Virus record (IMG/VR): IMGVR_UViG_2721755652_000006
Direction: 5' to 3' (one strand)
Source: a virus
Taxonomy: Duplodnaviria > Heunggongvirae > Uroviricota > Caudoviricetes
Length of the DNA: 37,205 nt
This document shows, in pieces, positions 1,370 to 2,297 of the stretch. Both the position numbers and the translations under genes were made by a program. The notes under the pieces are model-generated. The model did no database searches. It saw nothing but the letters and a program-made list of their open reading frames with translations, and was not told the DNA's origin. Each line of letters begins with the position of its first letter. Within the stretch, counting starts at the first letter, position 1.

Positions 1370-1472
1370 TTGTCCTCCTCTTAGCTGCTGAGGGAGTTTG
1401 TGACCGATATATCTGACATGATATTAAGCTCATGGCAGGTACATCTCTTGACTGGTCATAGAGATAAATTTA

Positions 1473-2297
1473 ATGCTGAGAAATGCAGTATTGAATTTAT
1501 CAATTTTTCACCAGCTTCTGGTCTTTCTGGCTGTCATGCGCAAAACATATGGCTTTAATAAAAAACTGGATTGGGTTAGCAACGAGCAACTTTCCGAATT
1601 AACCGGGATATTGCCGCACAAGTGTTCTGCTGCAAAAAGTGTTCTGGTAAAGCGTGGGATTTTTATTCAGAGCGGGCGGAATACCGGCATTAATAATGTG
1701 GTCAGTGAATGGTCAACATTACCCGAATCAGGTAAGAAAAATAAAGTTTACCTGAAAGAGGTAAATTTACCTGAATCAGGTAAAAAAAGTTTACCCAAAT
1801 CAGGTAAAGGCGTTTACCCGAATCAGGTAAACACAAAAGACAAACTAACAAAAGACAATATAAAACCTTTTTCGTCCGAGAATTCTGGCGAATCCTCTGA
1901 CCAACCAGAAAACGATCTTCCTGTGGTGAAACCGGATGCTGCAATTCAGAGCGGCAGCAAGTGGGGGACAGCAGAAGACCTGACCGCCGCAGAGTGGATG
2001 TTTGACATGGTGAAGACCATCGCGCCATCAGCCAGAAAACCGAATTTTGCAGGGTGGGCTAACGATATCCGCCTGATGCGTGAACGTGACGGACGTAACC
2101 ACCGCGACATGTGCGTGCTGTTCCGCTGGGCATGCCAGGACAACTTCTGGTCCGGTAACGTGCTAAGTCCGGCCAAACTCCGCGACAAGTGGACCCAGCT
2201 CGAAATCAACCGTAACAAGCAACAGGCAGGCATGATAGCCAGCAAACCAAAACTCGACCTGACAAACACTGACTGGATTTACGGGGTGGATTTATGA
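1473..2297 (+). CDS. O: Replication initiator O (lambda O-like C-terminal two thirds; N-terminus non-homologous or truncated)
   Basis: From about residue 120, the C-terminal portion (…NDLPVVKPDAAIQSGSKWGTAEDLTAAEWMFDMVKT…WIYGVDL) matches lambda O as I recall it; the iteron array lies inside the gene; stop overlaps the P start (ATGA). Confidence 0.85.
   Translation: MLRNAVLNLSIFHQLLVFLAVMRKTYGFNKKLDWVSNEQLSELTGILPHKCSAAKSVLVKRGIFIQSGRNTGINNVVSEWSTLPESGKKNKVYLKEVNLPESGKKSLPKSGKGVYPNQVNTKDKLTKDNIKPFSSENSGESSDQPENDLPVVKPDAAIQSGSKWGTAEDLTAAEWMFDMVKTIAPSARKPNFAGWANDIRLMRERDGRNHRDMCVLFRWACQDNFWSGNVLSPAKLRDKWTQLEINRNKQQAGMIASKPKLDLTNTDWIYGVDL
1719..1830. repeat. Five 17-bp iterons TTACC(C/T)(G/A)AA(T/A)(C/G)AGGTAA with internal dyad symmetry, followed by an A-rich tract (about 1831-1875): ori-lambda-like origin inside O
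   Basis: Direct repeats read at 1719-1735, 1748-1764, 1767-1783, 1791-1807 and 1814-1830; each is TTACC…GGTAA; an A-rich region follows. Confidence 0.8.

Follow-up and report, generated by a model that had tools for sequence, protein, structure and literature searches.

A probable 7.1-kb internal deletion joining the xis spacer to a 5′-truncated replication gene in the defective prophage Sp8 of Escherichia coli O157:H7

In the stretch of viral DNA analysed here (the window, 37,205 nucleotides), only 103 bp separate the excisionase gene xis from an open reading frame that resembles the replication gene O. A preliminary description, made from the sequence alone, had put this gap at about 100 bp and had proposed that a deletion fused the integration module to the middle of O, leaving a cryptic prophage with an orphan replication module. 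What is this element, and how did its two modules come to lie side by side? Our results indicate that it is the defective prophage Sp8 of E. coli O157:H7, very probably a 4A7-like phage that has undergone one illegitimate deletion of about 7.1 kb, the 274-aa reading frame being an accidental fusion. That Sp8 is defective and lacks CI and Cro is already published (PMC2669165); only the exact junction and the 5′ truncation of O are new here.

Identity of the element

Bases 1-4000 of the window show 100% identity to Sakai, EDL933, EC4115, TW14359 and many other complete E. coli O157:H7 genomes. As far as the tail-fibre assembly gene, the remainder matches Sakai Sp8 at 99.99% identity, with the exception of a 2.4-kb insertion. 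In Sakai, the matching stretch begins with the stop codon of the integrase (ECs_1609), immediately after icd, in a region annotated as 'prophage Sp8; lambda-like phage' whose chromosomal position adjoins icd. Sp8 of O157:H7 Sakai reportedly goes back to Hayashi et al., in 2001.

The insertion is a group II intron on the minus strand (20523-22923), present in the window and absent from Sakai Sp8. Its reading frame of 574 aa (20594-22318, minus strand) carries reverse transcriptase, maturase and HNH domains, and the Rfam families group-II-D1D4-7 (22723-22869) and Intron_gpII (20521-20597) both match on the minus strand. The intron sits antisense in a plus-strand tail gene equivalent to Sakai ECs_1639. 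In this orientation it would be unable to splice from the tail-gene transcript, and the gene is expected to be disrupted. The tail-fibre assembly gene, which lies at the window's end, contains a full-length match to the Rfam family IS009 (RF02111; 36967-37165, plus strand), with 229 bits at a gathering score of 117. Further to the right, outside the window, the right arm of Sakai Sp8 contains ISEc8 (IS66 family), a hydrolase gene and ompT (Sakai region coordinates 38938-44680). According to this annotation, the right end of Sp8 is rearranged or cargo-laden, which might also contribute to its reported failure to excise.

Asadulghani et al. (2009) listed Sp8 as a prophage without CI and Cro functions and without general recombination functions (Table 1; PMC2669165), its integrase, excisionase and all morphogenesis genes being conserved. 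They had predicted that Sp8 is excisable; circularisation, replication and packaging were scored -/-/-, with or without mitomycin C (Table 2; PMC2669165). Our search of the early genes, in which int and xis are full length and no CI, Cro or recombination genes appear, agrees with their Table 1. The difference concerns O. Asadulghani et al. scored O and P as apparently functional, whereas O is here 5′-truncated at codon 78; in the searched part of their text, 'truncat' does not occur (PMC2669165).

Table 1. Features of the integration and replication modules, with positions in the window
Feature	Position	Strand	Evidence
int, phage 21-type tyrosine integrase, 380 aa, full length	1-1143	-	ORF list; Sakai ECs_1609
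xis, excisionase, 78 aa, full length	1133-1369	-	Pfam PF07825 (Exc), E = 3.7e-5
Complete 139-bp xis-DUF4222 spacer of phage 21/4A7	1370-1508		Unbroken left homology to base 1509
Perfect 16-bp AT-rich hairpin with T-run, terminator-like	1463-1501	+	Terminator scan; RNA fold
O′, 274-aa in-frame fusion ORF, 5′-truncated replication initiator	1473-2297	+	ORF list; Pfam; tblastn; alignment
Deletion junction, 1-base microhomology (C)	1509-1509		Three-way alignment; blastn against whole 4A7
Origin iterons in O′, five copies of TTACCYRAAWSAGGTAA	1719-1835		Repeat-family search
A-rich stretch after the iterons	1833-1862		Iteron region
P, lambda-type helicase loader, 233 aa, full length	2294-2995	+	tblastn with 4A7 P (98.7%, residues 1-233); Sakai annotation
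ren, 100 aa, full length	2992-3294	+	tblastn with 4A7 Ren (98%, residues 1-100)

The junction and the stretch missing from it

The left flank is of phage 21 type. The integrase gene is 99.1-99.6% identical to those of phage 21 and 4A7 and of equal length (1143 bp), and xis has the length of its phage 21 counterpart at about 99.5% identity. The homology continues through the whole spacer between xis and the DUF4222 gene, which in phage 21 (OL657228.1) occupies record positions 28980-29118 (139 bp). Both the 103-bp gap and codons 1-12 of the fused reading frame stem from this spacer. When window positions 1000-1520 were searched, phage 21 and 4A7-type phages matched at 99.2-99.6% and the homology stopped at base 1509. 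Phages 4A7 (genus Bievrevirus), Lambda_4C10, 1W, 3W, Perceval and PhiR47_2 share int, xis and spacer with the window (99.1-99.6%). Phage 21, in contrast, resembles the window on the int-xis side only, and its O has a different, lambda-like N-terminal domain (69% protein identity).

The hairpin near the end of the spacer (RNA fold of -22.9 kcal/mol, z = -2.76, followed by AATTTTTC) is inherited with the spacer, is unannotated in the phage 21 record and encloses the ATG of the fused reading frame (1473-1475). The junction lies 8 nt past this hairpin, which might have favoured the break.

The right flank begins at the base where the left one ends. The preliminary description had suggested blastn against lambdoid genomes as a means of locating the junction, and the breakpoint falls at base 1509. 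In a search of window positions 1100-2400 against 50,697 phage records, homology to O started from this base, with 99.2% identity to PhiR34_1 and 97.9% to 4A7, Lambda_4C10, 1W, 3W and Perceval; none of the 50,697 records spanned the junction. To the right of base 1509 the window is 96-99% identical to O from codon 78, P, ren, emrE and ybcK of 4A7-type phages. In a three-way alignment, C1509 is the only base common to both parental sequences at the crossover, and this single shared base points to illegitimate recombination. On the 4A7 genome (NC_049946.1), the left-hand sequence breaks off at position 30286, where the stop codon of DUF4222 has its last base, and the right-hand sequence sets in at position 37372, where codon 78 of the 339-codon O begins. 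The two breakpoints are 7,085 bp apart in intact 4A7 and, by coordinate subtraction, 7,085-7,264 bp apart in six phages carrying both halves.

The window is collinear with 4A7, and this interval is the sole break in the early region. By blastn, window 1-1509 corresponds to 4A7 28778-30286 (99.1%), 1509-5531 to 37372-41405 (96.4%) and 5786-7372 to 42997-44585 (93.5%), and the blocks continue through the nin and tail regions (22924-33023 to 8740-18852, 94.4%). Like the window, 4A7 has the gene order O-P-ren-emrE-ybcK-ybcN-ninE-rusA and the tail genes, and it carries an icd fragment that marks icd as its integration site. The likeness is lower in later modules, with 65-69% identity in the head genes and about 77% in lysis over the only matching block.

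What the 4A7-like phages keep, and the window does not, is the stretch of about 7.1 kb from the DUF4222 gene to O codon 77. In 4A7 it encodes the DUF4222 protein, a DksA-like zinc-finger protein, three small proteins ('Phage protein', DUF1382 and DUF1317) and a hypothetical one that is likewise small; an exonuclease, the RecT-like annealing protein Bet, Gam and Kil; an ASCH-domain protein and another hypothetical protein; and a CI-like repressor, a Cro-like repressor, a CII-like activator and O codons 1-77. The operators with pL and pR, as annotated in phage 21, also fall inside the missing interval, and pO, from which oop is transcribed, overlaps O at its 5′ end (PMC6022878).

None of this stretch was found elsewhere in the element. 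By blastn, the 7,085 bp of 4A7 matched neither the window nor the complete Sakai Sp8 with its flanks. In the same sequences, tblastn (E ≤ 0.01) detected neither exo, bet, gam, kil, cI, cro and cII of 4A7 nor N, cI, cro, cII, cIII, ral and ea10 of phage 21; its matches were limited to O (from residue 64/78), P and ren. The Sakai annotation of Sp8 lists no repressor. Thus, the absence of exo, bet, gam, N, cI, cro and cII that the preliminary description had noted in the window is borne out and extends to all of Sp8, and the idea of immunity genes at another place in the element or immediately beyond the window is rejected.

Identity to any one phage differs between the flanks (99.1-99.6% on the left, 96.4-99.2% on the right), so that the junction could in principle join two different elements. 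Two resident prophages might have recombined illegitimately, a phage 21-like one at icd giving int and xis and a DLP12- or PhiR34_1-like one giving O to the late genes. The left side is indeed closest to phage 21-type phages (99.4-99.6%) and the right side to PhiR34_1 (99.2%), whose integrase differs, and O157 carries many lambdoid prophages that recombine with each other (PMC2669165). However, in 4A7, Lambda_4C10, 1W, 3W, Perceval, PhiR47_2 and D2 the two halves are found together, ordered and oriented as here and separated by about 7.1-7.3 kb, and differences in identity from module to module are normal in mosaic lambdoid genomes. Since both halves occur in one phage, an internal deletion needs a single event whereas the chimera needs more assumptions, and we consider the chimera quite improbable. 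With intact phages carrying both halves in this order, a single internal deletion is the most economical origin of the junction.

A 64-bp probe across the junction matched 296 of 5,426 complete E. coli genomes at 98-100% identity, and the serotyped strains among the approximately 90 matches listed are all O157. In other genomes, the left half has a DUF4222 gene as its neighbour, and the right half forms part of a full replication gene. The presence of the junction in 296 independent complete genomes rules out an assembly artefact and, as the named serotypes are O157, the deletion appears to be a fixed, lineage-specific feature of O157.

The fused reading frame and the replication module

The fused reading frame, O′, consists of 12 spacer-derived codons (MLRNAVLNLSIF) followed by O residues 78-339, its codon 13 (H, 1509-1511) being H78 of the intact O of PhiR34_1 and 4A7. 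Two points of the preliminary description have to be adjusted here. It had taken about 20 N-terminal residues to be unrelated to O; the N-terminus is unrelated, but over 12 residues, with homology from base 1509. The integration module is fused to O as proposed, although not in its middle: codon 78 of 339 lies in the first quarter of the gene and corresponds to residue 48 of the phage 21 protein. The reading frame was kept by chance, and O′ is an accidental fusion and not a variant initiator.

O′ does not align end to end with an intact O. Full-length relatives found in the database search have 297-339 aa, and the listed, source-named matches shorter than 297 aa are mostly labelled 'partial'. 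In an alignment of 24 proteins, all full-length O proteins share a block M-NTAE...RVADLDDGYTRIANELLEA that is missing from O′. The nearly invariant residues N33, A35, V52, A53, D57, G58, R61, N64 and L66 all lie in the deleted part, seven of them (V52, A53, D57, G58, R61, N64 and L66) in the block RVADLDDGYTRIANELLEA. The Pfam profile PF04492 (Phage_rep_O) is matched over positions 1-95 of 95 by intact 4A7 O and over positions 28-95 by O′, which lacks the first 27 positions and is left with an incomplete N-terminal origin-binding domain. Compared with the lambda O family (PF04492), the C-terminal domain is complete in O′ residues 13-274, the linker and the iterons are present, and of the predicted DNA-binding region the greater part remains, whereas those 27 profile positions and the RVADLDDGY-R--N-LLE block are gone. 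From this conservation and the Pfam match, O′ has presumably lost its function.

The O annotation of 4A7 and PhiR34_1 (339 codons) is probably 30 codons too long. Shorter members of the family, including forms of 299-318 aa, start at the conserved Met31 (MANTAE...) or within one residue of it. Counted from Met31, or on the lambda-like 299-aa O of phage 21, which aligns from residue 48, the truncation takes residues 1-47.

An AlphaFold2 model of intact O, built from the 24-sequence alignment, is of low confidence (mean pLDDT 53.9; 36-63 over residues 31-130) and places a helix at residues 58-72, in the deleted part just before the junction. A PDB sequence search (E ≤ 1) returned no solved structure for relatives of intact O. 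The origin-binding domain of lambda O was reportedly crystallised by Struble et al. in 2007, its minimal form being said to span about residues 19-139.

The rest of the replication module is well preserved. The iteron region within O′ is 97.9-99.2% identical to the origin region of intact phages, and the equivalent iterons of phage 21 are annotated as gpO binding sites. O residues 78-339 align without gaps to intact O, leaving linker and C-terminal domain intact. The C-terminal domain of lambda O binds P, and O′ is predicted to retain this P-interacting domain. Downstream of ren come emrE and a ybcK-like serine recombinase. With O′, P and ren present and the early genes absent, Sp8 corresponds to the repressor-less cryptic prophage with an orphan replication module that had been proposed.

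O′ has been separated from its natural start, from the cII-O junction with pO/oop and from pR. The expression route pR-cro-cII-O is gone, as pR, cro and cII are deleted. A promoter scan of the plus strand from 1100 to 3670 found no sigma-70-like promoter, which is a weak negative. Despite the lack of a consensus promoter, O′ could possibly be transcribed, for instance by read-through from icd.

It is tempting to ask whether the orphan module has been retained for superinfection exclusion at the level of replication, the iterons titrating O or a dominant-negative O′ poisoning O and P of phages of the same type. The module from O′ to ren, origin included, is undegraded (97.9-99.2% identity to intact phages) and fixed across the O157 lineage. 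Plasmids with part of the lambda replication region inhibit phages of lambda replication type independently of CI (PMC3349717), and expressed N-terminal fragments of P block O complementation, indicating a system sensitive to dose and interaction (PMC6022878). If exclusion did operate, the module would be a means of defence at replication rather than neutral debris. However, no promoter for O′ was detected in the scan, its start codon lies inside the hairpin, the high identity may only reflect a recent deletion, and DLP12 of K-12 presents such a deletion as plain decay. We therefore see little chance that the module serves exclusion.

Practically negligible is the reading of the 274-aa protein as a genuine short O variant in a complete natural architecture with its immunity genes elsewhere: the frame is open, RefSeq labels the protein 'replication protein' and the morphogenesis genes are complete (PMC2669165), but repressor, cro, cII, N and recombination genes are nowhere in Sp8, full-length relatives (297-339 aa) all have the N-terminal block absent here, the first 12 codons are phage 21 spacer DNA, the junction is in no phage record of 50,697 and Sp8 is experimentally inert (PMC2669165).

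Consequences of the deletion and comparison with DLP12

We propose that the ancestor of Sp8 was a 4A7-like lambdoid phage with phage 21-type int and xis that integrated at icd, as its relatives suggest. Very probably, a single deletion of about 7.1 kb then joined the base that follows the spacer, at the stop codon of DUF4222, to O at the start of its codon 78. With it went what remained of the pL operon (exo, bet, gam), the immunity region with cI, cro and cII, and O as far as codon 77; removal of cI, cro and cII implies removal of oL/pL and oR/pR as well.

On the model of lambda biology, a prophage without pL, pR, N, cII and cI would have no early transcription. In the absence of pR, the genes from O′, P and ren onward to Q would not be transcribed, and without transcription to Q the intact late genes would stay silent. 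In the absence of pL and cII, xis and int would lack regulated expression, so that excision would not take place. O′ itself lacks a conserved portion of its origin-binding domain, a recognisable promoter and a good translation start. Damaged and unexpressed in this way, the prophage's own O would leave the intact iteron origin unfired; even if made, truncated O′ would probably be unable to fire it. Together, these losses would lock the prophage in the chromosome. The proposed silencing fits the published inertness of Sp8.

A similar fate is seen in DLP12 of E. coli K-12 (xisD-exoD′-′peaD-renD-emrE-ybcK). As in Sp8, the immunity region is deleted and a remnant of the pL operon is fused to a remnant of the replication module, and P′-ren-emrE-ybcK match the window at 97-99.5% identity. 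In contrast to Sp8, the DLP12 deletion has one end within exo and the other within P, measures 5.4 kb against PhiR34_1 and has taken the whole of O and the origin. DLP12 also has a different integrase, whose region gave no match to the window, an attachment site at argU instead of icd, an xis pseudogene and an IS3 that interrupts ren. The exo′/′P junction of DLP12 joins PhiR34_1 positions 2777 and 8176, whereas that of Sp8 joins the xis spacer to O′. As breakpoints and integrase differ, we reject the possibility that both derive from the same event.

PhiR34_1 looks like an intact relative of DLP12, with 99.7-99.8% identity in int and from ren to ybcM. Relative to it, DLP12 (region 2573-3275) shows a first deletion from the integrase region to exo-proximal genes (PhiR34_1 1115-2471) and a second one from inside exo to inside P (PhiR34_1 2778-8175).

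Beyond annotation the finding matters little, given that Sp8 is a textbook defective prophage, known since 2009 to be inert and to lack an immunity region. What has been gained is a base-level map of the deletion, with its one-base microhomology and a length of 7,085 bp against 4A7. Hundreds of O157 genomes carry an annotated 'replication protein' that is in fact a 5′-truncated, pseudogene-like fusion and not the apparently functional O of the literature. The junction, apparently confined to the O157 lineage, could be used as a marker of that lineage. Beside DLP12 of K-12, Sp8 provides a clean second example of prophage domestication through loss of the immunity region.
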